A program made the translations under genes and the position numbers. DNA of 64,000 nucleotides. Source: a virus. The DNA lies in the IMG/VR virus record IMGVR_UViG_3300050010_000483, positions 20,592 through 84,591 of that record, one strand, 5' to 3'. Below, piece after piece: positions 14,844 to 47,800 of the stretch. How positions within the stretch are numbered: the first letter of the stretch is position 1; the number at the start of each line of letters is the position of its first letter. A model generated the notes under the pieces. That model was not told where the DNA came from, searched no databases, and saw only the letters and a program-made list of their open reading frames with translations.

Positions 14844-17800
14844 ATGTCAGAATATGCCGCAGAAGTAGGAGTTTTATTTAAACCAGATATGTCGCTCGTT
14901 GATCGGGCGGTCATGGAATCTGCATCAAAATGGGGCAGAGCTACAAATGGTCTTGGTAAAAACTTTCCACTTGGAAAACTAACGGGGGACGCAAGCGAAT
15001 TCCACAAGTCAATGGATGCCGCTAACGCTCGTGTTTTGGCTTTCGGCGCTTCAATGGGTTCCATCATGGTGGTCAAAAAAGCTTTTGACCTCTTGGTTGA
15101 TTCTACCATCAATGTTGAAAAACAACTCGCAGAAGTAAACTCTCTATTTAATTTGGGACCACAAGGTCTACAAAACTTTTCATCTTCATTATTTAAGATC
15201 GCCAATCAAATGAGCGTCAGTTTCTCGGACGCCGCCAAAGCCGCAAGTATTTTTGCCCACCACGGTTTGTCAATGGAAGAAACCTTGAAACGTACTTCTG
15301 CCGCTCTTGAACTTTCAAAACTTTCTGGCATGAGCATGGAAGAGTCTGTTCTTTCGTTGACATCCACAATCAACAGCTTTACCAAAGAAGCTTTGGATGC
15401 CCAAGACGTTGTTGATCGTCTTACTGCTGTTGGGGGTAAATATGCCGCCAGTTCTGATGAAATTGCCGAGGCTTTGAAACGTGTCGGTGCATCTGCAAAC
15501 GACGCGAATGTAACTTTCAATCAGACCATTGGTTTGATTACCGCCGCTCAACAGATTACTGCTCGTGGTGGTAGTGTTATTGGCAACTCTTTCAAGAGTA
15601 TCTTTACTCGTTTGCAACGTCCTGCTGTTTTGGACGATTTGGCCGCCGCTGGTGTTCAAATCCGCGATCTACAAGGTAAGATTTTGCCAATAGTTTCAAT
15701 TTTGAAGAATTTAGCTGTCTCTTACGACACGCTTTCTTCTTCTCAGAAATCTTTTGTTTCTGAAACCGTTGGTGGCGTCTATCAAGTGAACGTCCTCAAA
15801 GCTTCTTTAAGCGACATAAAGGGTGGAGCTAGTATTTTTGAAGGAGCGATGGATACAGCAGCCAACTCGGCTGGTGTTGCTCAAAAACGTATTGCTATTT
15901 TGAATGAAACTTTAGCGAGTTCAATGGTTCGTACTCAAAACGAAATGACTCGTTTGGCTGCAAACACTGGTAATATTTCTCTTACCCCAGGTTTAAAAAG
16001 CGGTGTTGGTGGTTTGAAATCTGGTGTTTCATGGATGGCTGATATGATGGACTCCAATAAAGCATCAAGTGGCAGCACTGGTCAACAAATAGGGGCAAAT
16101 TTATTTCAAGGCATTGCTCGTGGTATTGGTAACGTACTTGCGGGTCCAGGTATCCAGTTCATTACAACTGTTTTTGCAAAATTAATGACCCGTCTGGCTA
16201 AATTCATTAGTGATTCTTCCAAAGACCTGCTTGGTGTTAATTCCAAGGAACAAGAACGAGAAGCCATTAATGCGAACATCGCAAAGTGGCTTGGAAATCA
16301 AGAAGGCATTTTGGAAAAAATTGCCAGCGGTGAAATGACAATTGTTGAGGCTACTCAGCTTCGACAAAAACATCTTGAAATCATCCTAAGAACCTATCAG
16401 GACATTGCTACGATTTCTGGGGCAATAACTCCAGGCAATAACCCAACAATTAGTATGGGTGGGGAAGGACACGCCTCTGGATTTATTCCAGATGTTCGTG
16501 GTGAGGTAGCCGCCGCAAGCCAAGGTGGATATGCGGCTGGTAGAGTTGTCGGTACTACTATTCGTAATGGTAGTAGTTCGTTTAACTCAACAGTAAATAC
16601 TGCTGAAACAAAGTCTACTATTAATGTGGGTGGTACTGGTAGAATGGCTGATTTTATTAATCCGCCACTAAACAGTCAGGCGGGCCAACAACATCGTGCG
16701 AAAGCCATTAAGGTTTTGGGTGTAGACCCTTACTCTTTACCACAACGTTCAGTTAATGCTGAAGGTTTTATTCCTTCTAAACCATTTGCAATGTGGGAGA
16801 TTAACAGCGGTAATCTTCTTGGAAAATATAAAACTAGGACTGGTGCTATGAAGGCAGCAGATCGTTATAAAAATTATGACGGTGATTCTTATACTTATGG
16901 CAATGTAGTAGGAACATTTTCTTCTGGAAGAATTGAAGATTATCAAGCATTCATTAAATATAGAAACTCAATTCCTAGTCCATTTGCTTTGGGTCCATTA
17001 AATTCTGCTAGTGGGTATGTTCCTAATTTATCTTTGGATGATATGCAGGCCAGACTCAAGGCCATCGGTATCAATGACTGGCGATCTCTGAAACGTCCTT
17101 TTGCAACGCAGTATAATAAAGCCGCCAACAAAGACTATCCAACTGTGCCAGATTTTGATCTGTCAATGTTACCAGAGAGTTATTTGGGTGCCGTTACAAA
17201 ACATTTCACAAACCATGATGACGTGGCAGCTTTATTACGTTTTGCTCAGACGCAAATCTTTAAAAAGAAACTTATCATTCAGACGAGTAGCGGACAAAAG
17301 CGTCTGCCTTCATCTATTGGTGCTGATGCACTAAAATCTACTTTCTGGAACAATGCTGAGATAGCTGATACTAATGACGGTCTTTGGGGGGCCTTGCGTG
17401 GAAGTCTGGCCAACTCTGATACTGCAAATGTATTACCATTTTTACGCAAAGGTACAGGAATTCACAAAGACAATCTTGCTAGTTTTATTAGTTCTATTCT
17501 TGGACAAGGTTTTGAATCTCCAAATACAGATGAAGGTGAAGATGTTAACATGGATGTTGCGACGGCCCAACGTCTCTTGAGTCGTTATTCAGGAACATTT
17601 CCAACAGTGGTTGGTTATGATTCTATTAATAATCTTTCCCCAGCGGGTGATTTGCCAGACTTTGTAGGTAAACTAAAAATTGGTAATACAAAATTTGATA
17701 TAAACACTCCAATTTTTGGACACAAGACTTTCGTACAAAGGAACTTGGCGGAGGCTAAAAACATTGCATCTTTGATCGGTGGGGGTGATTTTGACAATGA

Positions 17801-20800
17801 TACTTTAGCAACAGTCTTAGGTAAGATGTTTGACAAACGCAGCAAGAAGGAAGCGGAAAGTGCTGGAATATTCATGGGTTCTGCAAATGCAGCAATTGAT
17901 ATTCCCGCTCCACTAAAGTCTATTTTGTCTCAAACCAACATTACTGGTGATGTTTCTGGCATTGAGCTAAAGAGTAGTCTTGAAGAAGCCAAAAGACATG
18001 CAGCCAGCAAAATTTTCCGTAGTTTAATCGGTGGTACAGAAGACAGTAATTGGTCTGGACCTATTGAGGCTCCATATCGTCTAGCTGGTGTTCCAAAATT
18101 TGGTACTGGTAAAACTGGTATTTTGGATTATAATCAGTTTGGTTCGTCAAGCAAAAATGAAATGTTGTTGGCTGCTGTTCAAGCGGCTTCTCAAGGAAAA
18201 GCCATTAAAATTATTCATGGGGCGGGTACGTATGCCACACAACATGCCGCAGACGTTTCCGAAGGTATTGCTCGTGGAAAAAATTACATAAAGTCGGCTG
18301 ATGATCTTTCTCAATACGATCAAATCGTAATGAATAGCTTTATTAGAAAATCCAGTGGTTTGACCAAGGGATATTCTGGTCTTTTGTATTCATTAGCTTC
18401 AAATGTACAGGGTTTGGGTCTTCCAGAAAGTTTGAATGAAAAACAACTTGGTGAATATCAATCTTTAAGGACGTTGATGAGACAACGTTTGGGAGACAGA
18501 TATTCTGGTGCGGCTGGGGGTTTTGTACCTGATGGTAATCTATCAGACATGTTGAAAAATATCTTCCATCCATTACATGAATTTCAGGCTTATAAAGAAG
18601 TTTCAAGACAGGCTCTTGATTTTGTAAACAATAATGGTTCGATTACCACTAAATTACCATCTGGGTTTGATCGTGAATTTTTGGCATCAGCTTTAGCCAA
18701 CAAGACTGTCGGAAAACCATACGAGGCTGATTTGGCGAGTCTGCAAAAAGTTGGAGTTTCTTCAAGTTATTTTGATGTTGTTCATGACATGTTCGGCCAA
18801 AAAGTCAACTATAAAGAGTTAATGTCTCGTGTTAAATCTGGTGAATATGCCAGTGGTTATATTCCTGCTGTTCTTTCTGCTTTAAAAGCAGAAGACAAAG
18901 CAACAGGGGGAAACGCCATATTATCAGCGAGTTATAAATTGGCTAGTAGTTCAAACCCTCTGGGTTTTGCGGCTATTGACAGTCGTTCTCAACGTAATGC
19001 TGATGAAGCAATTAGACAACATCAATCTTTGGGTCAGAGTTTGGCTTCGATTAAATCTGTGCCTCATTTGGCTCTTGATGATGGTTCAACTGGTTTTGCT
19101 GGATCAAGTATTTTCAACTCTATAGCCTTGGCCGTCGGGTCTTTTGCAAATAGTAATCGCACAGAATATCATTCTCTTGGTGATATTATCAAGAGCGTTT
19201 TTGGTGGTTTGCCATCAAATCTCAAGACCGTTGTAAATCCATCTTTTGAAGAAGTAGCCAAGAAAGTTTCGTTACTGGATTCGACAATCAAAACAGCACA
19301 ATCTGAGGTTCTATCTCCAAAACAGAAGACTACTTTTCAAGGGCAAGAATATAACAATTATAACGCCCTGACGGAGGTTTATAATACTCAACGCAGAGGA
19401 TTGACTACTCCTGATTACGAGGCTTATCAAAAAAATAAAGATGATTCTCGTTCAAGCCTCCAGGCCTTGGGTTGGAGACGCTCGATTTTGTCCAGTATGG
19501 CTGGTGGAGTTCTTACTCAAGGGGTTGATAGATTCTCTCCAAATGCTGGGGCTGCTGTTCAAGAATTTACTTCTGGTTTGACTCAATCGTATCAAGTTTT
19601 AGCTGCATTCCCTAATGAATTTGGTAAAGCTTTGCGCATGGGTGTGCTGGCTGGTTCGGCATTGAGTGCCATTGATTTGTTTGGTAAAGGTCTCGCCACA
19701 CAACAGAGGGCTTTTAATGAATCTCAAACCAAGTATCAAAACTTGGCAGTTCAGATTGATGGACTTTCTAACGTTTTGAATAATTTTGACCAACTGTTGA
19801 ATGATTCATCTGTGAGTTTTGAGACTTTAACCCGCGAGAGTCGCAAATATACAGAATTGCTTGGTCAAATGTCTCAGACACCAGAAGGTTCTTTCGCTGC
19901 TGAAAAAGTCATGAGTGCGGGAAGTAATACTGCGGCTATCGCTGCTTTGCAAGAATACAAGGCTGGTAAATCCCGTGATCTTGATAGACAGGCGGCTTTA
20001 TTGGGTCTAAAAGAATATGGAGACAAACGTACATTTGGCGTCGGAAACTATAAGATTGGTAATCCAATGGGATTTTCCAACGACATAGAAAAAACCGAAT
20101 TAACTCAAAAAATTAGTGATGCGGCCAAAACTGGTATTGAAGCTCTCAGTGAAAAAGAAAAAGCTAATCTTGTTAGTTCAACTTCTCAGGGATTTGGTAA
20201 CTTTTCTACACAACTTGGCAACGTGGGACCAGTCGCCTCTAAGTTCATGTCATCAATGAACCCAGGTACTCGGACTGCCGTTTCCCAAGAAATGTTCAAT
20301 CAACTACTCACAGAGAATGTTGTCCAACAGGCTCCAGTTCAAGAAAAACTCAAGGATTTGCGTGATCGCAATGCAATTCGTCAATTGAATTTGGATTCCG
20401 TTCGACGCCGTGCTGCATCAGAAAAACGTCTATTCATTGACCAAGGTTCCATGATTGCAGGAAATGAACTCGACTTGCGTGGAATTCAGTCTCGTGGCAC
20501 CTACAATACTGCTGAGATTACTTATGGCGTTGGTCAGGCTATGAATCAGTACTATTCTTTAAATACAGGAGAACGAACGATGGCTCAACGTCAGGCCATC
20601 ATGGATACAACCCGCCTGCAAGCAGAGGGTCAATTCAAATCACAAAGTATCAAGGCACAAGCCACAAGAACTGTCGCTTCTGGTTTGACTCAAAACTTTG
20701 AAGAATATTTGGGTCATACTGATTTAACTAAACTTTTACAAGCTCCAGGTCAAGCTCCTATTGGTGATATTGAACAATTCAAAGCAAACTTAATTGATGC

Positions 20801-23800
20801 CACCAACAAAGGTATTGCATCCACGGTTAAGAGTGGAAATTTCGATCAATTCAACAATAATGGTGTTTTTGATATTGAAGCGATGAAGAAAGCTATTGCT
20901 GCAAATGGAGTCAACGGTAGTACACCAGAGGGACAAAAAATGCAGAAAGCTATTTCTGACTTTCTAAGTAATAAAGACACTGAGGAAATTCTCAAGGCGA
21001 TGCAAACGGCATCACTTGACCTGGTAAATTTGGGACAAGATCAAAAACTCGAACTGGAAAAGATTCAGTCCAATACATTTGCGACAACAAAAGTTTTCGA
21101 TTTCAAACAACTTAGTTCTTTTCTTGGTGGTACAAAAAACTTGACAGATCGAAGCTTCCGCCGTGAAGAAGAAAGAAAAGTTGAGCGTGGTGCTTTCTTG
21201 TTAAATCATGGAAGAACCGCAGAAGCTCGCGGACAAGGTGGTCATGACGTTCTTGAATTCTTTAAAGACAACAATGTTCCGATAGACTTAAAGGGCAACT
21301 CTTCCACGTCTAAGTTGATGCAACAAGCATGGAATGCCGCCCAAACAGGTCTTTCAACGACGTTATCACAATCAATCGGAAGAATCACTGATAGTGATAA
21401 TCGCCTGAATGGCGGACAATCGAACTTTGGTTCAATTTTTGGAAGTTATGATGTAAATGCCGCTGCCAATGCAGGTTTGTCTGCTGAGTTCAAACCTGAA
21501 AATCCCGCCATTACTAGTGGAACTGCCGCCACAGTACCAAACGCCATGAAAACGTTTGATGATAATTTAGACAGTTCGATTCAATCAATTAAGAATTTTG
21601 GAGAGTCTTTAAATCAGACTGCCGCCAATTTCCTACAGGCTCAACAAGATATTAAAAAGGCCGCAGAAGAAATAGATACCGTTACTAAAACAGACACAAA
21701 TAATTTCCAAACATTCATAAATAATTGGACAGCTAATAATCAGTCTCAATCATTACAAACAAATCTTTCTCAAGAAAAGAAAGGGATTAACTGGGGTGGA
21801 CTTGGAAGTGCTGCTATTACCACAGTAGCTACTGCCATTCTTTGGACTCTTTCGAGTCGTATTTCGAGTGGTTTCTTGGGTGGAATCTCAGCAAAAATGG
21901 GAATTGGTGGCTCGAAGAAAGTCGAAGAAGATATTGCTAAAATAGCTACGACTGTTGAAAGCAAAGGTTCATCAGTTATTCGTGAAAGTTCTGATTTAAT
22001 TAAAAATGGAATTCCAAGTTCTTGGAAAAAAGAACAAGAAAATCCATTGATACAAAAACCCGTCGCTTCTATGGCTCCTGTAGCTAATCAAAAAATAGGT
22101 CCATTAAATGCAAACAAAACAACCACTGGGGCATCAGATGCTTCAAAGGTAAATGAAATTTTGTCTGCTAATCATTCTGAAACTATTGGACTTGTTGGTA
22201 AACAAGAAATACTTCACAATGATTTGGTATCTTCTTATTCCAAAATCGAAAAGTTCCGTGAAGAAACTTTAAAAAAAGCCTCTCAACAAATAAAATTGGG
22301 ACGATATACAGGTATTGCATCTATTGATTCTAAGATTCAAGCACATGAATTTGGTAATATTAACAAACAAGAAATTTATCAACTACTTGACAAGACAATA
22401 AAAACTTCTGAACTTCCAGGAGGAAAAAAACTATTAAAAACTCATTCGGACATACAAAAACAATTTAACGAAAATCAAGGAAGACAAAGAATTTTACGAG
22501 AGAGAAATGCCACTATTCAACAACAAGCAGCTAAAACATCTTTGAAAAATACCATTAAAGATACATTTAATCCTGGAGTTTCTTCGGGTGTAGATCATGG
22601 TCCTTTCCACCCAAACGATTTCATGGGAACTTCTGATATTAACACGAAATATACAGAAGAACAACTGGCTGAGTTTGCACCATCAGCAAAACCTAGATAT
22701 TTATCTCGTATTGGAACATCTGTAAGTAATTTTGTTGGTTTTAAACCATATCCTGGAAAATGGTGGAAAACTTCTTGGAAACCTTCTGGAAAATCAACTC
22801 TTTTTGGCAATCCTTTTAGTGTCGCTGGTTTTAATGCAGCCTCTAAATTGGGTAAAAGTGTAAAAATTGGTGGAGCAGGATTGGGAATTTTGGGCGCGGC
22901 TTTATCAGCTAAAGAAGCTTATAATGATTTTAGTACAGCACATGACACAGCAGATTACACTCGCGCTGGCGGTCACTTGGCTTTAAATGCCCTTTCATTT
23001 GCTGGTCCAGTAGGATTAGCGGCCTCGTTAGGAGTAAGAGCGTTAGATAATACTATGCATGAACGTTGGGATTCTCAGCAAGATGTTGCAGATGCAGAAA
23101 ATAGAGGAAAACAAATTGATATGAGAATACGTTTGTTACCTCGTGAATTAGCTCAACGCAAGCGCAAAAAAGCTTTAGCTGTACAAGCTGGCATTCAAGA
23201 ACAAAATGAACAACAAGATGCGATTACTGCTCAAGCTGAAATGAACCCTGCTTATGCTCAGGGTGCGGCCAATCTTGGTTTGGGTCATCTCCAAAATGAT
23301 CTTGGCCACGCAAGGGGACGCAATGGTATTGACTTCACAAAACTCTCTCCTGAGAGTATGAAAAACCTTGACATGATCTGGCACTCAGAGCATCCTGATA
23401 AAATGATTAACGGTAAGTATGTTCGTTCTATGCCAACAGCCGCTACAGGAGGATATTCAGATTTGGCTAACAGTTTGTTTGATGGTACAGACAACAACAA
23501 ACATCGTCAAGCTTTAACGACAGCTTATGGTCGTTCCCTTCCAACATTATTAGATGGTGGTTATGGAACATCTAATTATGATCGTACTAAAAATAGAGTT
23601 ACTCAAGACAATGTTCAATCATCTGTGGAAAATAAAGCCCTGCAAAATATAATGATGGAACAAAGACAATTAAAAGAAGATTCGGCGCAAAATAAAGTAA
23701 ACAATTCTAATAATACTCCAGATAATACCCAAGAGCGTTTGATTTCCGTTTTGGATAAACTTGCTAATGCTGCTAATGGTTCCAACAGTACACCAGCTAA

Positions 23801-23966
23801 AGTTGATTCTAATATTACAGTACAAATTTCTTTGGCTGATGCCGATAAGATTCCTGATACATTGATGAAGCAATTAATTGCTCCTTTACAGAAACAATTG
23901 TCTGATTTGCAAAATCAAACTAACATACTAAGCAACAGATTCGCTCCTAAACCAGCGAAGGTATAA
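14844..23966 (+). CDS. tail tape measure protein (TP901-type N-terminal core) with internal extra domains
   Basis: 3040 aa. The N-terminal 500 aa show the typical tape measure core (EKQLAEVN...ALELSKLSG...IAEALKRVGASA...GGSVIGNSFKSIFTRL). It has long helical stretches and hydrophobic Gly/Ala segments. Confidence 0.9.
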   Translation: MSEYAAEVGVLFKPDMSLVDRAVMESASKWGRATNGLGKNFPLGKLTGDASEFHKSMDAANARVLAFGASMGSIMVVKKAFDLLVDSTINVEKQLAEVNSLFNLGPQGLQNFSSSLFKIANQMSVSFSDAAKAASIFAHHGLSMEETLKRTSAALELSKLSGMSMEESVLSLTSTINSFTKEALDAQDVVDRLTAVGGKYAASSDEIAEALKRVGASANDANVTFNQTIGLITAAQQITARGGSVIGNSFKSIFTRLQRPAVLDDLAAAGVQIRDLQGKILPIVSILKNLAVSYDTLSSSQKSFVSETVGGVYQVNVLKASLSDIKGGASIFEGAMDTAANSAGVAQKRIAILNETLASSMVRTQNEMTRLAANTGNISLTPGLKSGVGGLKSGVSWMADMMDSNKASSGSTGQQIGANLFQGIARGIGNVLAGPGIQFITTVFAKLMTRLAKFISDSSKDLLGVNSKEQEREAINANIAKWLGNQEGILEKIASGEMTIVEATQLRQKHLEIILRTYQDIATISGAITPGNNPTISMGGEGHASGFIPDVRGEVAAASQGGYAAGRVVGTTIRNGSSSFNSTVNTAETKSTINVGGTGRMADFINPPLNSQAGQQHRAKAIKVLGVDPYSLPQRSVNAEGFIPSKPFAMWEINSGNLLGKYKTRTGAMKAADRYKNYDGDSYTYGNVVGTFSSGRIEDYQAFIKYRNSIPSPFALGPLNSASGYVPNLSLDDMQARLKAIGINDWRSLKRPFATQYNKAANKDYPTVPDFDLSMLPESYLGAVTKHFTNHDDVAALLRFAQTQIFKKKLIIQTSSGQKRLPSSIGADALKSTFWNNAEIADTNDGLWGALRGSLANSDTANVLPFLRKGTGIHKDNLASFISSILGQGFESPNTDEGEDVNMDVATAQRLLSRYSGTFPTVVGYDSINNLSPAGDLPDFVGKLKIGNTKFDINTPIFGHKTFVQRNLAEAKNIASLIGGGDFDNDTLATVLGKMFDKRSKKEAESAGIFMGSANAAIDIPAPLKSILSQTNITGDVSGIELKSSLEEAKRHAASKIFRSLIGGTEDSNWSGPIEAPYRLAGVPKFGTGKTGILDYNQFGSSSKNEMLLAAVQAASQGKAIKIIHGAGTYATQHAADVSEGIARGKNYIKSADDLSQYDQIVMNSFIRKSSGLTKGYSGLLYSLASNVQGLGLPESLNEKQLGEYQSLRTLMRQRLGDRYSGAAGGFVPDGNLSDMLKNIFHPLHEFQAYKEVSRQALDFVNNNGSITTKLPSGFDREFLASALANKTVGKPYEADLASLQKVGVSSSYFDVVHDMFGQKVNYKELMSRVKSGEYASGYIPAVLSALKAEDKATGGNAILSASYKLASSSNPLGFAAIDSRSQRNADEAIRQHQSLGQSLASIKSVPHLALDDGSTGFAGSSIFNSIALAVGSFANSNRTEYHSLGDIIKSVFGGLPSNLKTVVNPSFEEVAKKVSLLDSTIKTAQSEVLSPKQKTTFQGQEYNNYNALTEVYNTQRRGLTTPDYEAYQKNKDDSRSSLQALGWRRSILSSMAGGVLTQGVDRFSPNAGAAVQEFTSGLTQSYQVLAAFPNEFGKALRMGVLAGSALSAIDLFGKGLATQQRAFNESQTKYQNLAVQIDGLSNVLNNFDQLLNDSSVSFETLTRESRKYTELLGQMSQTPEGSFAAEKVMSAGSNTAAIAALQEYKAGKSRDLDRQAALLGLKEYGDKRTFGVGNYKIGNPMGFSNDIEKTELTQKISDAAKTGIEALSEKEKANLVSSTSQGFGNFSTQLGNVGPVASKFMSSMNPGTRTAVSQEMFNQLLTENVVQQAPVQEKLKDLRDRNAIRQLNLDSVRRRAASEKRLFIDQGSMIAGNELDLRGIQSRGTYNTAEITYGVGQAMNQYYSLNTGERTMAQRQAIMDTTRLQAEGQFKSQSIKAQATRTVASGLTQNFEEYLGHTDLTKLLQAPGQAPIGDIEQFKANLIDATNKGIASTVKSGNFDQFNNNGVFDIEAMKKAIAANGVNGSTPEGQKMQKAISDFLSNKDTEEILKAMQTASLDLVNLGQDQKLELEKIQSNTFATTKVFDFKQLSSFLGGTKNLTDRSFRREEERKVERGAFLLNHGRTAEARGQGGHDVLEFFKDNNVPIDLKGNSSTSKLMQQAWNAAQTGLSTTLSQSIGRITDSDNRLNGGQSNFGSIFGSYDVNAAANAGLSAEFKPENPAITSGTAATVPNAMKTFDDNLDSSIQSIKNFGESLNQTAANFLQAQQDIKKAAEEIDTVTKTDTNNFQTFINNWTANNQSQSLQTNLSQEKKGINWGGLGSAAITTVATAILWTLSSRISSGFLGGISAKMGIGGSKKVEEDIAKIATTVESKGSSVIRESSDLIKNGIPSSWKKEQENPLIQKPVASMAPVANQKIGPLNANKTTTGASDASKVNEILSANHSETIGLVGKQEILHNDLVSSYSKIEKFREETLKKASQQIKLGRYTGIASIDSKIQAHEFGNINKQEIYQLLDKTIKTSELPGGKKLLKTHSDIQKQFNENQGRQRILRERNATIQQQAAKTSLKNTIKDTFNPGVSSGVDHGPFHPNDFMGTSDINTKYTEEQLAEFAPSAKPRYLSRIGTSVSNFVGFKPYPGKWWKTSWKPSGKSTLFGNPFSVAGFNAASKLGKSVKIGGAGLGILGAALSAKEAYNDFSTAHDTADYTRAGGHLALNALSFAGPVGLAASLGVRALDNTMHERWDSQQDVADAENRGKQIDMRIRLLPRELAQRKRKKALAVQAGIQEQNEQQDAITAQAEMNPAYAQGAANLGLGHLQNDLGHARGRNGIDFTKLSPESMKNLDMIWHSEHPDKMINGKYVRSMPTAATGGYSDLANSLFDGTDNNKHRQALTTAYGRSLPTLLDGGYGTSNYDRTKNRVTQDNVQSSVENKALQNIMMEQRQLKEDSAQNKVNNSNNTPDNTQERLISVLDKLANAANGSNSTPAKVDSNITVQISLADADKIPDTLMKQLIAPLQKQLSDLQNQTNILSNRFAPKPAKV

Positions 23967-40038: not shown

Positions 40039-43000
40039 ATGGAAATTACAGGACAACCATACGTTGAGGTTCAGAATAATATTTTAAGCGGCTTCTATTA
40101 TTTAAATTTTAATAATGGCATCCAACCAAAATTATATGAATTTTCGAGTCCTGCCTACCCCATTAGCAATTTTAATGCACCTTATGATGCAATACTGCCT
40201 GCTCCACAGGGGTCATTAGGTTTATTAACGGCAGTTGGTAAACGTCTTCGTTCTGACGCAGATTATAGCGAAAGAGCTTCTGATAGGGCGGGTAAACTAT
40301 ATTTTTCAGACACAGCAACTTTATATGGAACCTGTCATGGTTTTGGACGAGATTTTTTGACATTTTATACTGGATTTAATTTTTACCAGGCATTCTATCC
40401 AGCAGGATACTTTTCGCCGCCTTATGGAGAATCACTTTCCATTTTTAAAGCAAATTCCAACAGCGCACAGGCAAATTCCAATGCCACACAAGCTTTGAAT
40501 AATGGTGCGTGCAGTAATATTAACATTACCGAATATAATGAAACTTTTGGTATTGTTTCAATTACTGATTCTGATGTGGGAGATGTCACAGACAGTCTCT
40601 CTGCAAACATGTATGCTCCAATTTATAGTGCGGCAGAGGTTTGTCCCCCACCAATTTCAATTACAAGCTATTATGATGAACTTAATTTTAATCAAATTCA
40701 AGGTACTACCACTCAACTTGGTGCGGGAACCTTTTACAATGGAAATCCTATTCCTACTTCTCTGGATATATTTAACATCAAGTTAAATAGTAGATACAAT
40801 ATTACTGGGGCTGGGGATGGACGAATGATAGTTTACTATAAGAATGGTACAAATATCTTTAAGCCACAAGAATCATATTCTGCTTCTAATCAGGAAAACC
40901 TGCTGAATAATGTTTTATGTTTGGCTGGTATCATGGAGAATAATACATCTGCTGGTGCTGGTACAAATGGGGATCAAATGATTCAGGCTCCTGATCAGAA
41001 TTTAGGTAATGCTGGTAGTCAATCATTCATTAATCAGGGTACAGATACGGCCTGGAATTACTGGCACTTCACTTTTAAAGAAAATGCCGACACGCTTCCA
41101 TTTTCAAATAATTTTAGTGCAATCAATGGTGGTGAACCAGTCTCTGCAACGAATGAGGGGGCCAATGAAGGTACTCAATTATTCCTTCCTGTTCTATCTA
41201 GTTCAGATGCTTATTGGCAAAATCGTCAGTGTCCTGACACTGTTGACTTTCTTCCCTGGACATTTGGCGCATCTATTTATGCGTGCCCATCATATCATTT
41301 TGATGTTCCATATTATGCTGCGATTAAAAAGTTCGGATTCTACGGTACACGTTTCTTAAACACTTGTAATGCCCTAAATCTTACAAATACATGGAATGGC
41401 GTGGCTAATGCTATTGAATTACCCGCCAGCACAACGAATGTACCCATTGCTGAAAATCTTGCCGAACCAGCGGGAGTTGATGCCAAGGGGTCATGGTCTT
41501 TTGCTGTATATGATAACCTACTAAATACCGCGAAAGCTGAAGAAAGATTCTCAAACATGTTTGCTTTAAACAAAGGATTTTTCCTTTGGGCAAACACGGG
41601 TAATTATACTTCCGACCCAAACTTTTTGACACTGTCTCAGATCAGTGGATTTGGGGCATCGTTCTCTGCATTAATTGGACAATTTTCCGCCATGTTTACT
41701 GGCGGACTATCTTCGTTTGTTAGTGGAGTTCCAGCCATTATTGTTCAAAAAGTTCAAGCGGGTAATGGTGTAACTGAACTTGCGTCATCAACTTATGTTG
41801 GTAATAGTAATAGCTATAATGATTTGATGTTTTCAAATCAACCCTATCAAAACTTTCTTACAAACATAGGTAACTTTTTTCCGACAAGCGGCCTTCCATA
41901 TCTAAATATTTTTGCCAATCAATATGGTTCATTTGTCATGGATCAAAATGGTAATCCCAACGAGTCATTTTATTCAGGCATGATTTCTGGTAGAGAGCAA
42001 AGAACTCTCACTAGATACATGGAAAATACAGTGCAAGGAAACCCGATTGATTTATTTCCAATCAATCATATTTTGTTTTCCTTTGATTCTGCACGAGAAT
42101 ATCTTGAAAATACAGGATGGAACCGTGGTTTGGGTGGATTTGCCAATACTCAACTCCCAGTAATCAATCAAAGATTTTTTGAAGGGGCATATGGAAATGC
42201 CAGTCAAATTACTGGATTGCTTCAAGTATTGGATTCATTGAATTTTATTGACAATACATCGTTCTATCCAGGATTTTTCAATGACATTACTGTCAACAAA
42301 GACATTCCAACCCCAAGCTATGTTCCTGTTGTAAGCGGAATTATTCTCGATAATCAGGGAAGAAGTTTCTCTTCCAGCGGATGGCTTGCCTTGGGTTATA
42401 ACGAGATTGGAAAACTTGATGGCAATTTTTCTTGTTTCACCCCCATTTTTGTTCAACAACCTTTAGATAATGTATTTACAAAGATTGGACAAGCACCAAC
42501 TTTGCGTGCGATGGCGGTTGATTACCACTCTATTCCTGATGATAAAATCACGCCACGTTATCCTGAAATTCTTTATTGGGCATATAATTTAAAACTAGTT
42601 GATGATAAATTCAACAATCTGTATCCAGTACAATATAAATGGCTGCGCGTACCGATTAGCCAATATGCTGGCTGGTTTATGTCGGGAATCTTGACTGGTG
42701 ATTATGCCAGTGTAACTGGCGATTGGTCTTGTCTGGAAAATGGTGGATCAAATTGTACGATCTGTCATCTAAATCAAAGTTCTCCAACGGGAGTTTTGGG
42801 GACAACCGATCAATATACTTTTTTGAAAGGTGTAAACTATGGAATTGATGACCAATACTACTATATGTGTGTTGCGTCGGGAAGATTTGGTGTTCGTATT
42901 AGTGAACCTACCACGCTGACAATTGAAAACTGGACAAAATTTGATGTATCACTCAAACTGGGTTTGAATCAAAGTAATATGCCTCTTTCGTTAAATTTCA

Positions 43001-44862
43001 TCATCAATGATGTGAATGGGGAAAATCATAGCATCACATTTGCTCCATTGGAACCAACAGTTGCCTATCAGGGTTATCAAGCTGACCCATATGCAATTCC
43101 AGAAGCCGTTATTGAAGAAAAAGTCCCGCCGCCAAATGCTGGTTATGGAGACGTATCAGCTTTTAAATGTGTTGGACCAATTGGATATGTTGGGGCGACT
43201 AGAAGTTATCAACCAGATACTTTGGAAGATACTCGTGGTGTTCGTGGGGCATGGGGACGTTTCATTGAATACGGTTCTCTTATTTCATTGGGTAAAGCTC
43301 TGAGTCAATTGGAGGGCGATCTTCTTTATGGATATCAACATTTGCCCAAATGTGTCAATTATGAGATGCCTTATGGTAATCGTGGTGCCATAGTTTCAGC
43401 GCAACTAGGAAGTTATTATATTAGTCACTGGACACTTGACCAACAAGCTGTTGCAGCTACGGCGGATACAGTAGGAATGATTTGGACAAGTCTAACAAAT
43501 GTAGCTCAACTTTATCCACCAATTACAACTCGTGGATTACCTGGAACTGATCCTTATATTGCTGGTTTCGCCATCGGACAGTGGCAATGGGGAAACAATT
43601 TGGGGGCAATTAAACGTTTTGGATATTTATCAACTCCAGCTTCCCAAGATTTGGTATTTACTGGGCCAGGTTCTCCATCAACCGCATCAACTACTTCACA
43701 GTTATTAAATCAAGTGAAACAAAAGATTTTGTCTCCAAATGATCTGGCTGGTTCAAATTGTGGCTACTCTATACTAGGATTAGGTAGAAATATGCTATAT
43801 TATTTGGAGGCATACGACCGTTTCTATCTATTATGTGACGATGCGAAAAAGAAGAATGTTCAGGATATCTCCTTTATTTGCCCAGGACTTAGGGCAACTA
43901 ATTCTGCCATTCAATATTGTTGGTTGGGACATCCATCAAATACTTATGTCGAAAGACATCCAATGTATGGTCCTTATGCCTATCAATGGAAAGTCAACCG
44001 TCACAATCGTGATCGCAATGGTAATGGTATCTCCGAAGGATTTTACTCAATGGAATATAGGACAAAATATACCCTATTGTATGACGCCCCAGCCATCTAT
44101 GGTTTGTATCTCAAAAAAGATGCAAGTCAAATGTACAAAAATAAGGTTAATGATATGATCTCCTATCGAAACGCTCTATTTCCTGGGGATGTTGACATTA
44201 CAAGTCTTCGGGGAATCTGGCTTGGAGTTGGTGGTAGTGAAGGTGATTATCTAACTTATGGAAATATGTTTTGCTCATCTGATACGGACGCAAATTCAGC
44301 CCTTTGCCAATATATTAGTCAGGCCCAAAGTTTTGGAAGTAGTCCAGATTTTCAAGCATATGGTTGTGATGCCGCCCAATTAGCTTTAGGCCAATGTTTT
44401 GACCCCTGTCTGAGTATGCGTTATGGTCAGGGATTTTTAGCTGGGGGAAAGGTACAGAATTTATTTGGTGATAAACCAACTACTTCTCAAAACGTCAATA
44501 CAGCAGCCACGATAAGACTGGTTGCAAGTAGTAATTTGGATAAAAATGGAAACATTATCACAACTGATGAACAATCTGTAATAGACCCAAATATTTACTT
44601 CCGCAGTCCAATTAACACCCCGCACGCCCGTGCGTGGAGGGGTTTAAGTTCAATTCCTGAAATCACGATCAATCCACAAAATATTGTTGGAATGAGTCCT
44701 TGCAAGGATGGGGGCACAGATCATTGTAATTATATCACTCCTACCGTACATTTGAATACAAGTACCATATTACTCACTTCTTCATCGGCTTTTGTTGTTG
44801 CAAAAAATTATGCTGCAAACCTCTATGAATCATATAATATAGCTGGCAGCAATAACGATTAA
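40039..44862 (+). CDS. giant virion protein with an embedded Ig-like domain
   Basis: 1607 aa, N/G/Y/S-rich and containing Cys. PIFVQQP...GQAPTL...YKW...DDQYYYMCVASGRFG..ISEPTTLTI is an Ig signature. Confidence 0.65.
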   Translation: MEITGQPYVEVQNNILSGFYYLNFNNGIQPKLYEFSSPAYPISNFNAPYDAILPAPQGSLGLLTAVGKRLRSDADYSERASDRAGKLYFSDTATLYGTCHGFGRDFLTFYTGFNFYQAFYPAGYFSPPYGESLSIFKANSNSAQANSNATQALNNGACSNINITEYNETFGIVSITDSDVGDVTDSLSANMYAPIYSAAEVCPPPISITSYYDELNFNQIQGTTTQLGAGTFYNGNPIPTSLDIFNIKLNSRYNITGAGDGRMIVYYKNGTNIFKPQESYSASNQENLLNNVLCLAGIMENNTSAGAGTNGDQMIQAPDQNLGNAGSQSFINQGTDTAWNYWHFTFKENADTLPFSNNFSAINGGEPVSATNEGANEGTQLFLPVLSSSDAYWQNRQCPDTVDFLPWTFGASIYACPSYHFDVPYYAAIKKFGFYGTRFLNTCNALNLTNTWNGVANAIELPASTTNVPIAENLAEPAGVDAKGSWSFAVYDNLLNTAKAEERFSNMFALNKGFFLWANTGNYTSDPNFLTLSQISGFGASFSALIGQFSAMFTGGLSSFVSGVPAIIVQKVQAGNGVTELASSTYVGNSNSYNDLMFSNQPYQNFLTNIGNFFPTSGLPYLNIFANQYGSFVMDQNGNPNESFYSGMISGREQRTLTRYMENTVQGNPIDLFPINHILFSFDSAREYLENTGWNRGLGGFANTQLPVINQRFFEGAYGNASQITGLLQVLDSLNFIDNTSFYPGFFNDITVNKDIPTPSYVPVVSGIILDNQGRSFSSSGWLALGYNEIGKLDGNFSCFTPIFVQQPLDNVFTKIGQAPTLRAMAVDYHSIPDDKITPRYPEILYWAYNLKLVDDKFNNLYPVQYKWLRVPISQYAGWFMSGILTGDYASVTGDWSCLENGGSNCTICHLNQSSPTGVLGTTDQYTFLKGVNYGIDDQYYYMCVASGRFGVRISEPTTLTIENWTKFDVSLKLGLNQSNMPLSLNFIINDVNGENHSITFAPLEPTVAYQGYQADPYAIPEAVIEEKVPPPNAGYGDVSAFKCVGPIGYVGATRSYQPDTLEDTRGVRGAWGRFIEYGSLISLGKALSQLEGDLLYGYQHLPKCVNYEMPYGNRGAIVSAQLGSYYISHWTLDQQAVAATADTVGMIWTSLTNVAQLYPPITTRGLPGTDPYIAGFAIGQWQWGNNLGAIKRFGYLSTPASQDLVFTGPGSPSTASTTSQLLNQVKQKILSPNDLAGSNCGYSILGLGRNMLYYLEAYDRFYLLCDDAKKKNVQDISFICPGLRATNSAIQYCWLGHPSNTYVERHPMYGPYAYQWKVNRHNRDRNGNGISEGFYSMEYRTKYTLLYDAPAIYGLYLKKDASQMYKNKVNDMISYRNALFPGDVDITSLRGIWLGVGGSEGDYLTYGNMFCSSDTDANSALCQYISQAQSFGSSPDFQAYGCDAAQLALGQCFDPCLSMRYGQGFLAGGKVQNLFGDKPTTSQNVNTAATIRLVASSNLDKNGNIITTDEQSVIDPNIYFRSPINTPHARAWRGLSSIPEITINPQNIVGMSPCKDGGTDHCNYITPTVHLNTSTILLTSSSAFVVAKNYAANLYESYNIAGSNND

Positions 44863-44865
44863 GGT

Positions 44866-47800
44866 ATGGGAAATTTAATGGAAATCTTTGGGATGGCCAG
44901 TGTCGCATCCTATTTAAGGGGACTAACCAGTTCTTTGGAAACGTCTCGTATTCAAGGAATGGTTGATGGAATCACTGTTGGATTTGGAATGCCAAGCACT
45001 GACGGCGATACCTTATTCTTCTACTATCAATCTTCACCAGATTTGCCATCAACGGCTGGCTTTGACAATGTCAGTTGGTTTGCTCTTTATCAACAAGACG
45101 TTGAAAATATTATCAATAAGTTCTTACCAAATGAAGCAGAAATCAACCGTTTGACGTTGAGTATTGCCGTTTACTCTATTATTTGGGCTTATGCATTGAA
45201 TACCGCAATTCAACCAGGTGATCTTGTTCCAATAATAGGAAGTACATTAGTTTCCGTGGCTCAATTGGCAAACAATAATGCCCCGTTCAAAACAGTCAAA
45301 AATGGAAATACAACAACAATAATACAACCATTCTCAGCAGAGATTATTGCAAGTCTTACTAATAAAGACTATGCTGCTTCTCTGGCACAAGTAGCCGCAT
45401 CCGCGAAAACCAGTCAAACTCAATTGGCCAATTACAATTGGTTTGATGTTTCTAGTTTCTTTGCGAAACCAGATTTGCAAGTTATGAAAGACATCGAAAG
45501 TCAGTATTATTATATTTCTGGTGTCCTTAATTACATGGCTCCACAAGAAATTCCTCCAGATTGTATTGGGGATCAGATAATTCTTCAAACTTACACTGGG
45601 GAGACAAATACAACATTCATTCGTAATACCCCATGTAAACAGGTTAGTTCTTATGTTGGTCCACTAGAGCAGTTGACATTTAACCGAACATTTAGCGATG
45701 GACCATGTTCTAGTGGAGATTTTACTTTGGCTGTAAAATCTGGATATTTTGATTTTGATCAAAGTATTCTTCCACCAAAAGATTATTTGAGTAATGCAAT
45801 TAATTTGTATTCATTTTATCAGGATACAAATGGAAATTATATTCCTCTTTGTACTAGCCCAACTTTTATTGATGCTAATGGACGTTATGATATTTTAAGC
45901 GAACTTTCGGCTAGTCCTGGAACTCTTAGCTGCGTTGATGTGCCTCAGAGAATGCATGTGGGTGATGAACTTCCGCGCCGACAAGGCAAATATAATAGTC
46001 ATGGTAAATGTATTGGATGGACATTAGTAAATGTCACTGGCTTTAAATATGTTTCATTTGAAATCCCTTCAACAGGTTTTAATCAAAACCTTTCTTACTA
46101 TAAACTAAATCCTGTTCCAGCAATCTCTGGAGTTCTACAACGGGCATTAAATTTAAATCCTAATCCATATGTTGCAACTCAAATGGGAGACTTTTATTTC
46201 CCATTTACATTGGACATTTATGAAAATCAACACTGGTATGTTGGTCCACCACAATTGAATGGAACAAATACTTTGCCATCATTTGCTTTTTATCAGCATT
46301 TTGACAGTACAAATTTCAATGACAACATGAAAATTGTCATGTTTCCATGTCTAAGTTCAAGCGATGGTACAACGGCAGGAGATACTTCAAGAACATTTTC
46401 CATATCAACAATGATGGCTGCAAGTGGATCAAACGACGCTCATTTTCCCTACAAAAATCCTTATGGAACAGCCACATTTTACACGGGAATTTCATCAAAT
46501 CTTGCTGGTGCAGATACTATTGCCAAACAATGTTTTGGCATGGGAGATGCTTTTGAAGGTCAGTATACAATTACAAGCTATCCAGCTTGGAATTCAAATT
46601 TCAGTTATACTGGTTATGCAGCGACGTCTAGCAATGGACAAGTTGTTGATTTATTAGATGTCGCGCAAGAATATAATGGATTTATTTTAGGAAGTCCTGT
46701 TCAGTACATGCAGTACATTAATGGATATTCTGGAGCAGAAGGCGTCAGTTCTATTAGTCAATTGGTTGCATTAGATGGTTCTGGTAATTTCGTCAACTAT
46801 TATTATTTGGATGAACGCCTTTATTCTAATGTGATTCTCGATGCGGGAATTTGGAATTATTTTGCACCAGTTCCATCTCACATGGATGGAAATTCGACAA
46901 GACTTTTTTACACTCAACAAGTTGAGAATTACCTTCCGCGTTATTCTTCTGGACCTTTTGCTTCGTATATGGAGTCATTTCTATATCCAAATGCAAATCA
47001 GACCGCCCGTAAATATGGGATAAAATCTAATGGATTTCCAGTTTCTATCACTTTTGATGTTGAGATTAGAGAAGAGGCTATAAAAGAAATTTATGGCACT
47101 TTCACTATTTTGCCAAATGGTAATATTTCAACCTATCCAACCTTTGTTACACCAATTCGCTCGGTGTCAACCAATGGTAAGAATATCAATCCCGTTACAA
47201 ATCAAGGAACTGGAATTCCTTTGATGTATACAATTTTTCAATCGAGCGATATCTATCAAGTTTCAAATTATGATTTCACAACTTGGGCTATTGGTTCTGA
47301 TTTTGAATATACAGCCAAGTTACCCGTAGTTGATATAAATTGGTCTCCAAATACTTATAATTATGATAATGTTTTAAATCCTCCATTAGGATACAACAAT
47401 AACACTTACACGAGCGACATGAACGGGAATCTTGTTGGTAATCTATTCAAGAATGGAGTTCTACAAACTGGAAATGGAGGACAGGCTCATACAATCATTA
47501 CTGGGCCAGGGCAAATGGTAAAAACAGTTTATGATGAAAACCCCACTGCTGTTGCTCTTTATCATGGATTTCACAGTTGGGAACAAGCAGGAACAATTAC
47601 CTATGTTCCTCCCATTTATAATCTTGCCAGCGGAGATTTATTTGTAAGTCCTCAGTTGTTAAATGCTTTCCCTGAAATGCAAACATTTCTTGGATATATT
47701 GCCGTGGATTTTAACAATCACCTGTATAATTTGACTACTGGCACCGATCCAATATTTAATCAATATGTTGGAGGACGAGTTGGTGGTCCAAATCAAGAAG

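Follow-up and report, generated by a model that had tools for sequence, protein, structure and literature searches.

A junction peptide marks the sites of module exchange in a family of phage tape measure proteins

Tape measure proteins (TMPs) are ejected first at infection and sometimes carry one enzyme. Here we describe a TMP gene from an uncultured peat phage, located on a stretch of 64,000 nucleotides (positions 20,592 to 84,591 of the IMG/VR record IMGVR_UViG_3300050010_000483) that is referred to below as the window. The encoded protein carries several copies of one short peptide behind its TMP core, and in this protein family the junction peptide is the site at which modules are gained, lost, moved and replaced between phages.

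One of the closest described systems is pb2 of phage T5. In the work of Linares et al. (2023, PMC10038345), cleavage behind R1127 divides pb2 into pb2* and pb2C; the one site lies near the C-terminus, with a metallopeptidase part behind it. The sequence in the T5 record is A-N-S-F-V-P-R before the cut and A-E-G-G after it, which places the cut one residue past F-V-P. This is the only [FYHW][IV]P in the 1219 amino acids (aa) of pb2, and such a match would lie within 5 aa of any one position with a probability of about 8e-4. To our knowledge, it is the only mapped cut site in a TMP. As described for pb2, the window TMP has an extra part set off from the ruler, at a putative cut site in its case, and neither protein contains cysteine. 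In contrast to pb2, the window TMP has five or six such sites in its N-terminal half, where they fence several unrelated modules, and no sequence similarity between the two proteins was found beyond the peptide.

The TMP of phage lambda, gpH, is described as cleaved during tail assembly into gpH* and gpHC and is also free of cysteine; its cut site, its protease and the general way in which TMPs are cut are stated as open in the available text of PMC12617516. Unlike the window TMP, gpH has no [FY][IV]P motif. A non-ruler domain inside a TMP has been described for mycobacteriophage TM4, whose TMP contains an embedded Mt3 peptidoglycan-hydrolase motif (PMC1796659). Such TMPs hold single embedded motifs and no repeated fencing peptide, whereas the window TMP holds an exchangeable array, a fixed peptide and two bracket domains.

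A further comparison is offered by the polyvalent proteins, in which many unrelated domains share one polypeptide and for which co-delivery with the DNA and separation by processing have been proposed (Iyer et al. 2017, PMC5512222). The present TMPs resemble them in stringing unrelated domains together, and relatives of the window TMP give weak matches to GNAT, ParB_N, GHKL and P-loop families. However, the processing described for polyvalent proteins relies on embedded zincin-like peptidases, none of which was found in the window TMP or in the scanned relatives, and the available text of PMC5512222 contains no mention of tape measure and describes no junction peptide. Polyvalent proteins are defined by several recognizable effector or enzymatic domains, and in the window TMP only the TMP core was detected.

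The junction peptide and the domain order of the family

The window TMP is a member of the TP901-type TMP family. TIGR01760 (tape_meas_TP901) matches aa 78-418 with 118.3 bits against a curated cut-off of 28.8, PF10145 matches aa 120-307 (E 4.5e-30, 105.5 bits, cut-off 33.2), and 11 PHROG families, each annotated as TMP, match the first 400-650 residues. The run of motif copies begins directly after this canonical core, as the first-pass annotation of the window had stated. A regular-expression search of the TMP open reading frame (ORF) with A.G[FY][IV]P returned five copies, all in the frame of the ORF and exactly where that annotation had placed them, against 0.005 expected from the protein composition. 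No further copy is present in the six frames of the window, and the degenerate DNA pattern of the motif matches the same five places and no others in the whole 84.6-kb record. The spacings of 95, 83, 502 and 112 aa also agree with those reported. The last segment, given as 70 or more residues, is a conserved domain, c2 (aa 1345-1405), ended by a sixth, weakened copy. In this sixth peptide a deletion has taken out the glycine and the aromatic residue, and alignment with relatives shows P1407 and L1409 to be invariant. The features concerned are the following, all on the plus strand.

14844..23966, plus strand: TMP gene, a single ORF of 3040 aa with 0 cysteines, matching TIGR01760, PF10145 and 11 PHROG TMP families
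15075..16097, plus strand: TP901-type TMP core (aa 78-418, TIGR01760), within conserved block c0 (aa 1-543)
16473..16490, plus strand: junction peptide copy 1, ASGFIP (aa 544), then DV; aligns with the family-wide first copy
16500..16736, plus strand: conserved small domain c1 (aa 553-631); motif-trimmed profile E 2.3e-23
16758..16775, plus strand: junction peptide copy 2, AEGFIP (aa 639), then SK; BLAST blocks of most relatives end at aa 644-645
17007..17024, plus strand: junction peptide copy 3, ASGYVP (aa 722), then NL; blocks to P0003, P0004, P0006 and P0009 begin at aa 713-722
18513..18530, plus strand: junction peptide copy 4, AGGFVP (aa 1224), then DG; blocks end at aa 1225-1230 in P0003, P0004, P0005, P0010 and P0014
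18849..18866, plus strand: junction peptide copy 5, ASGYIP (aa 1336), then AV; blocks of six relatives begin at aa 1327-1336
18876..19058, plus strand: conserved small domain c2 (aa 1345-1405); motif-trimmed profile E 6.1e-10
19056..19073, plus strand: sixth, weakened junction peptide S-V-P-H-L-A (aa 1405-1410); relatives have G-[FK]-[IV]-P-N-L-A
19074..23963, plus strand: long C-terminal part, presumed ruler (aa 1411-3040); colinear with the C-terminal parts of relatives

Relatives were gathered by scanning IMG/VR with an alignment of the window TMP and two homologues. The scan gave at least 554 confirmed relatives, from which 80 loci (L001-L080) were kept; TMP-like matches from a search of protein representatives (P0002-P0015) were used beside them. 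The closest relatives share about 30-37% identity with the window TMP overall. Motif statistics refer to 80 TMPs, namely those of 79 loci and the window, with L062 left out. A splitting of the L062 TMP at the motif was considered and rejected; its frame changes at a poly-A run 37 aa past the last motif (L062:12880-13300), and the downstream frame continues the homology, so that the shift may be a sequencing error or a slippery site.

The full motif of the family is [AS]-x-G-[FYH]-[IV]-P-N-[FL], of which the window form is a weakened version. The N-[FL] after the proline is kept in only one of the five window copies, and the lineage of the window uses N-L, not N-F. The 80 TMPs contain 311 copies of G-[FYHW]-[IV]-P, where 4.18 would be expected. 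Among the 275 unique contexts, the glycine and the proline are 100% conserved, N comes next in 89%, F in 84%, and S or A precedes in 81%; the logo shows that the surroundings are usually rich in K, S and G. Four copies, near aa 540, 622, 890 and 960, are found in 45 of the 80 TMPs. The number of copies ranges from 0 to 8 among these proteins, with up to 12 matches in P0010. The motif is confined to the TMP: its strict form has 281 copies in the TMP ORFs of 81 loci, and the other frames of at least 100 aa at the same loci, about 354,000 aa in total, contain none. The family that carries it belongs to uncultured phages and is very large. No match was obtained by megablast or tblastn among 50,697 deposited phage records, and no description of the family was found in PMC or bioRxiv by the letters of the motif or under TMP processing, cargo or polyvalent proteins.

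Cutting the TMPs at the motif and clustering the pieces gave 385 segments in 80 clusters. Typically, c0 of about 540 aa is followed by c1 of about 82 aa, by c3 or c5 of about 250-290 aa, by c2 of about 73 aa and by a long C-terminal part. Block c0 is common to 79 of the 80 clustered proteins; the outlier, L075, has no motif and hence was not segmented. Three to six further unique modules lie between c1 and c2 in L005, L012, L074, L079, L006 and L049. With hidden Markov models from which the motifs had been trimmed, c1 was found in 84 and c2 in 80 of 93 family TMPs. In the 77 proteins with both domains c1 always comes first, and the gap between them is 17-1962 aa (median 290). The modules are optional, since in L002 c1 is joined straight to c2. 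Both domains are flanked by the motif on either side. The window TMP follows the same plan, with the order c0, c1, module 2, module 3, module 4, c2 and ruler, and it shares the marks of the family: at least two motif copies after the core, c1 followed by c2, and homology that breaks at the peptides.

The idea that c1 and c2 are a duplicated domain was rejected. Their hhalign match fell from 97% to 0.2% once the flanking motifs were trimmed, so the similarity is that of the motif alone. Sequence searches of the PDB gave only weak FlgE matches for c1 (E 0.04), none for c2 and nothing credible for the whole-TMP profile. The common middle module c3 (e.g., L058 aa 760-840) keeps the pattern G-T-V-F-E-x-A ... 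I-D-F ... Y-E-A-K; the window TMP lacks c3.

Modules are exchanged at the junction peptide

The first-pass annotation had proposed a cassette layout with the motif as a possible recombination joint, and comparison of the homologues supports the layout and, in relatives, the joint. The motifs are retained, whereas the segments between them differ in identity and number from one homologue to another, with 0 to about 10 segments. The segments within the window TMP are unrelated to one another at the sequence level, as had been suggested, with no off-diagonal match in a self-BLAST at E<=1. Exchange is seen in four pairs of near-identical proteins that differ by an inter-motif module (L037/L045, L059/L068, L028/L008 and L032/L040). 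Over most of the N-terminal core, the two proteins of a pair are about 80-100% identical; identity drops to about 10-30% from the second to the third motif and then rises again; several of these pairs diverge once more further into the C-terminal part. In the two pairs compared at the DNA level, the switch lies at the motif codons. Nucleotide identity between L037 and L045 is random before the G-F-V-P-N-F codons and rises to about 98% precisely there, and between L059 and L068 it stops directly after the motif codons.

The same tendency is seen across the family. Of 10,412 internal ends of BLAST high-scoring segment pairs among 84 TMP regions, 36.2% fall within 5 aa of a motif, compared with 4.9% of random positions; because the protein pairs are related and not independent, this value is descriptive and is not a probability. 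The homology blocks of the window TMP behave similarly. Most end just behind copy 2, at aa 644-645. The blocks of module 3 run from aa 713-722 to 1225-1230, those of module 4 run from aa 1223-1227 to 1339-1356, and those of c2 start at aa 1327-1336.

Judged from the sequences, the peptide is conserved as protein and not as DNA. The five motif copies of the window share no DNA beyond what their codons require. The codons of the motif are nevertheless biased, with CCT at 67% against 33% gene-wide and GGA at 57% against 46%. Codon use at the junctions leans toward GGA TTT ATT CCT AAT TTT, which hints at homogenization at the DNA level, although the corresponding p-values are inflated by kinship. 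Such a lean toward one DNA consensus fits repeated recombination at the motif, even though third positions still vary.

Module content and genomic setting

The modules of the window lie between copies 2 and 5 of the peptide and are listed here together with the place of a lost Walker A motif.

16776..17006, plus strand: module 2, an orphan of 77 aa (aa 645-721) with no credible homologue
17025..18512, plus strand: module 3 (aa 728-1223), confined to giant TMPs; relatives of its C-terminal half are P-loop NTPase-like modules
18210..18242, plus strand: place of the lost Walker A, I-I-H-G-A-G-T-Y-A-T-Q (aa 1123-1133), from alignment with relatives
18531..18848, plus strand: module 4 (aa 1230-1335), movable; homologues at differing places in relatives

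A HMMER search with aa 636-1341 against 1.84 billion representatives gave 15 matches, of which 14 are giant TMP-like proteins or fragments. For module 2, neither the 80 loci nor these representatives contain a credible homologue; the fifteenth match, P0016, a fibronectin-like tandem-repeat protein, was considered and rejected as spurious. Relatives of module 3 keep a clean Walker A, G-P-M-x-x-G-K-T-T, with a hydrophobic strand behind it whose last residue is D, and this form is found in seven of them (P0002, P0003, P0005, P0006, P0008, P0013 and P0015). At the place of the P-loop, Pfam gives weak matches to AAA (E 0.013) and ATPase_2 (0.05) in P0003 and P0015. In the window module the motif is lost, so any activity would not be ordinary nucleotide hydrolysis; the sole module of the window that can be traced to a known type, P-loop NTPase-like, looks catalytically disabled. 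Module 4 illustrates movement. Its homologue stands directly after c1 in P0012 (aa 622-764), about 900 aa past c1 in P0004 (aa 1515-1631), from aa 1332 onward in P0005 and in the fragment P0011, where it is flanked by the motif.

Pfam at E<=1 finds no family in the window TMP besides the TMP core. Among 52 modules from 22 TMPs, Pfam matches are all sub-threshold, with GNAT families in 3, 2 and 1 members and ParB_N in 2; PHROGs add one polynucleotide kinase match and one phosphoheptose isomerase match. The segment at aa 1373-1491 of P0003 resembles a GHKL (Bergerat-fold) ATPase, with 24.1 bits for HATPase_c_3 against a cut-off of 25 and E 1.7e-4 for topoisomerase VI B. Some relatives probably carry enzymes in their modules, although the GNAT, ParB_N, GHKL ATPase and P-loop matches all lie below the curated cut-offs. 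Neither crude composition nor Chou-Fasman means distinguish the modules of the window from the ruler.

The source record of the window is an 84.6-kb IMG/VR virus with a CheckV completeness of 55%. Gene order around the TMP fits a tail-gene layout, and six upstream ORFs accompany the TMP gene in 57-73 of the 80 loci; none of the neighbors in the window has a recognizable family, being too diverged to name. The window stretch is present in 14 peat or permafrost DNA runs. For positions 16000-19600, contigs of three other peat or permafrost runs (three studies, 2018-2020) cover 30 of 30 bins without a differing letter or joint. The DNA of this stretch is real and not an assembly artifact. Contigs from one RNA library cover 15 of the same 30 bins, but DNA carry-over is possible, so this coverage is no proof of expression. 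Among bacterial and archaeal genomes the sole match is one contig of 2.3 kb from a metagenome-assembled genome, and because of this no host is assigned to the phage.

Elsewhere in the window, an ORF of 872 aa (49593-52211, minus strand) encodes a DnaE-type DNA polymerase III alpha with NTPase, finger, HHH and OB domains; its match begins at aa 47, too close to the start for an N-terminal PHP domain to fit. A pair of neighboring giant ORFs (1607 and 1576 aa; 40039-44862 and 44866-49596, plus strand) matches no Pfam family at E<=0.001.

Possible processing and delivery of the modules

The reading that we favor, tentatively, seems to us quite possible. The TMP has a five-part plan, in which the TP901-type core is followed by c1, by a bay where unrelated modules vary, by c2 and by the long, presumed ruler at the C-terminus. 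From c1 to c2, each boundary bears the peptide [AS]-x-G-[FYH]-[IV]-P-N-[FL], which is the site of exchange and, in this reading, would be kept at the protein level as a processing signal of the T5 type. By analogy with pb2, the cut is predicted one residue past the proline, that is, between N and F/L in the family and after D, S, N, D and A in the five window copies. The modules would travel in the tail with the TMP and would exit the virion with it at infection.

Cleavage at the junction peptide is plausible by comparison with T5. The T5 cut site and the window copies agree in the relaxed pattern A-x-[GS]-[FY]-[IV]-P, and the cut in pb2 lies one residue past A-N-S-F-V-P. Of the interpretation offered by the first-pass annotation, the cassette layout is supported, as is the recombination joint in relatives; the protease site is suggested by this analogy, and no protease was recognized near the gene. 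A likeness of c1 and c2 to pb2C and gpH had also been noticed by eye, in G-G-Y-x-P-G and E-x-V, and was not borne out by hmmsearch or hhalign.

The route of the modules is suggested by the near absence of cysteine. Of 93 TMPs in the family, 86 lack cysteine entirely, and the total is 8 cysteines in 230,529 aa; the module bays contain 3 in 49,605 aa. By comparison, cysteine makes up 0.66% of the other ORFs of the same loci and 1.11% of the other large ORFs in the window. Both T5 pb2 and lambda gpH have 0 cysteines. Cytoplasmic enzymes rarely avoid cysteine so strictly. As the modules are as poor in cysteine as the ruler is free of it, the two may be under the same constraint, such as unfolded passage through the tail and the oxidizing periplasm. 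From the ejection of TMPs and from this shared lack of cysteine we infer that the modules may be delivered with the TMP.

Several observations weigh against the favored reading. At the T5 site, S stands in place of the G that is invariant in the family and R in place of the N, and the relaxed pattern that unites them was chosen after the T5 site had been seen. Lambda gpH is also cleaved and lacks any [FY][IV]P, and a kinship of c1 or c2 with T5 pb2C or the C-terminus of gpH was rejected after hmmsearch and hhalign gave nothing. No protease was recognized among the conserved neighbors of the TMP gene, nor any peptidase family, the embedded zincin-like metallopeptidases included, in the window TMP, the 52 modules or the whole TMPs of six relatives. 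If N-[FL] is needed for cutting, most sites of the window would be dead, because four of the five copies have lost it. By our own reasoning, the lumen of the tail tube should have no space for three copies of folded 500-aa modules. The three private modules of the window match no Pfam, PHROG or PDB family, and the lysine and threonine of the Walker A are lost in module 3 of the window, as they are in P0004. Finally, no module variants were seen in the three other peat runs, which says nothing against variation elsewhere.

The loss of N-[FL] is more easily accommodated if the junction peptide stays uncut and acts as a structural or docking motif in flexible linkers, with the modules still joined covalently to the TMP; a binding core could keep G-[FY]-[IV]-P alone, where an N/F cut could not as readily. 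The motif might bind the lumen of the tail tube, a host envelope protein or a chaperone of assembly, or it might pack the modules against each other. A strictly conserved element of 6-8 residues in K/S/G-rich surroundings is typical of linear binding motifs, the motif on both sides of c1 and c2 could bring the ends of modules together, and confinement to the TMP agrees with such a role. On the other hand, the T5 parallel favors cleavage, the central proline of the motif makes a regular beta-strand less likely, and no partner is known. We regard docking as possible, though somewhat unlikely.

It is also conceivable that the peptide is mainly a recombination joint at the DNA level and that the modules are spacers or assembly-time domains that are not delivered. 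The break points of exchanged modules at the motif DNA, the codon bias beyond the need of the amino acids (in CCT and GGA) and the lack of a recognizable activity in the modules of the window would suit this explanation. However, glycine and proline are invariant in the 275 unique contexts while third codon positions vary, and the absence of DNA likeness beyond codon demand among the five window copies points in the same direction, so that selection acts on the peptide. Furthermore, 18 bases are short for homologous recombination, and avoidance of cysteine would not be expected of cytoplasmic spacers. For the peptide as mainly a DNA joint, we consider the case distinctly improbable. Least convincing, and very unlikely in our view, is a removal of the modules during tail assembly, after which they would be discarded or work in the producing cell and the C-terminal ruler alone would remain in the tail. 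In its favor, T5 and lambda TMPs are processed in tail assembly (PMC10038345, PMC12617516), and large folded modules would by our own reasoning not fit the tube. Against it, the T5 fragment is described as remaining in the tail (PMC10038345), and avoidance of cysteine is equally strict in the modules and the ruler, which suggests a common route.

Returning to the favored reading of processed modules that leave with the TMP, a role of the modules as effector or anti-defense cargo, as the first-pass annotation had imagined, may be plausible, and in this phage the one module of traceable ancestry seems catalytically disabled. A broader version strikes us as unlikely: the peptide would be a general processing signal of TMPs, cut one residue past the proline as in T5, and in a very large group of uncultured phages cysteine-free proteins, reprogrammable by recombination, would be loaded in the tail lumen and released as separate effectors in the host, a polymorphic form of effector delivery by the tail ruler.

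An exchangeable array of modules fenced by a fixed peptide is a design apart from TMPs with one enzyme. The MuF-linked toxins would offer a further parallel to proteins carried by the tail. The junction peptide provides a testable candidate for the cutting of TMPs, a process whose mechanism the available text of PMC12617516 states to be open. For phage engineering, it marks natural sites at which a virion protein tolerates foreign domains. If the favored reading is true, the tail ruler would be a carrier for a changeable set of proteins and would parallel the polyvalent proteins packaged in the head.

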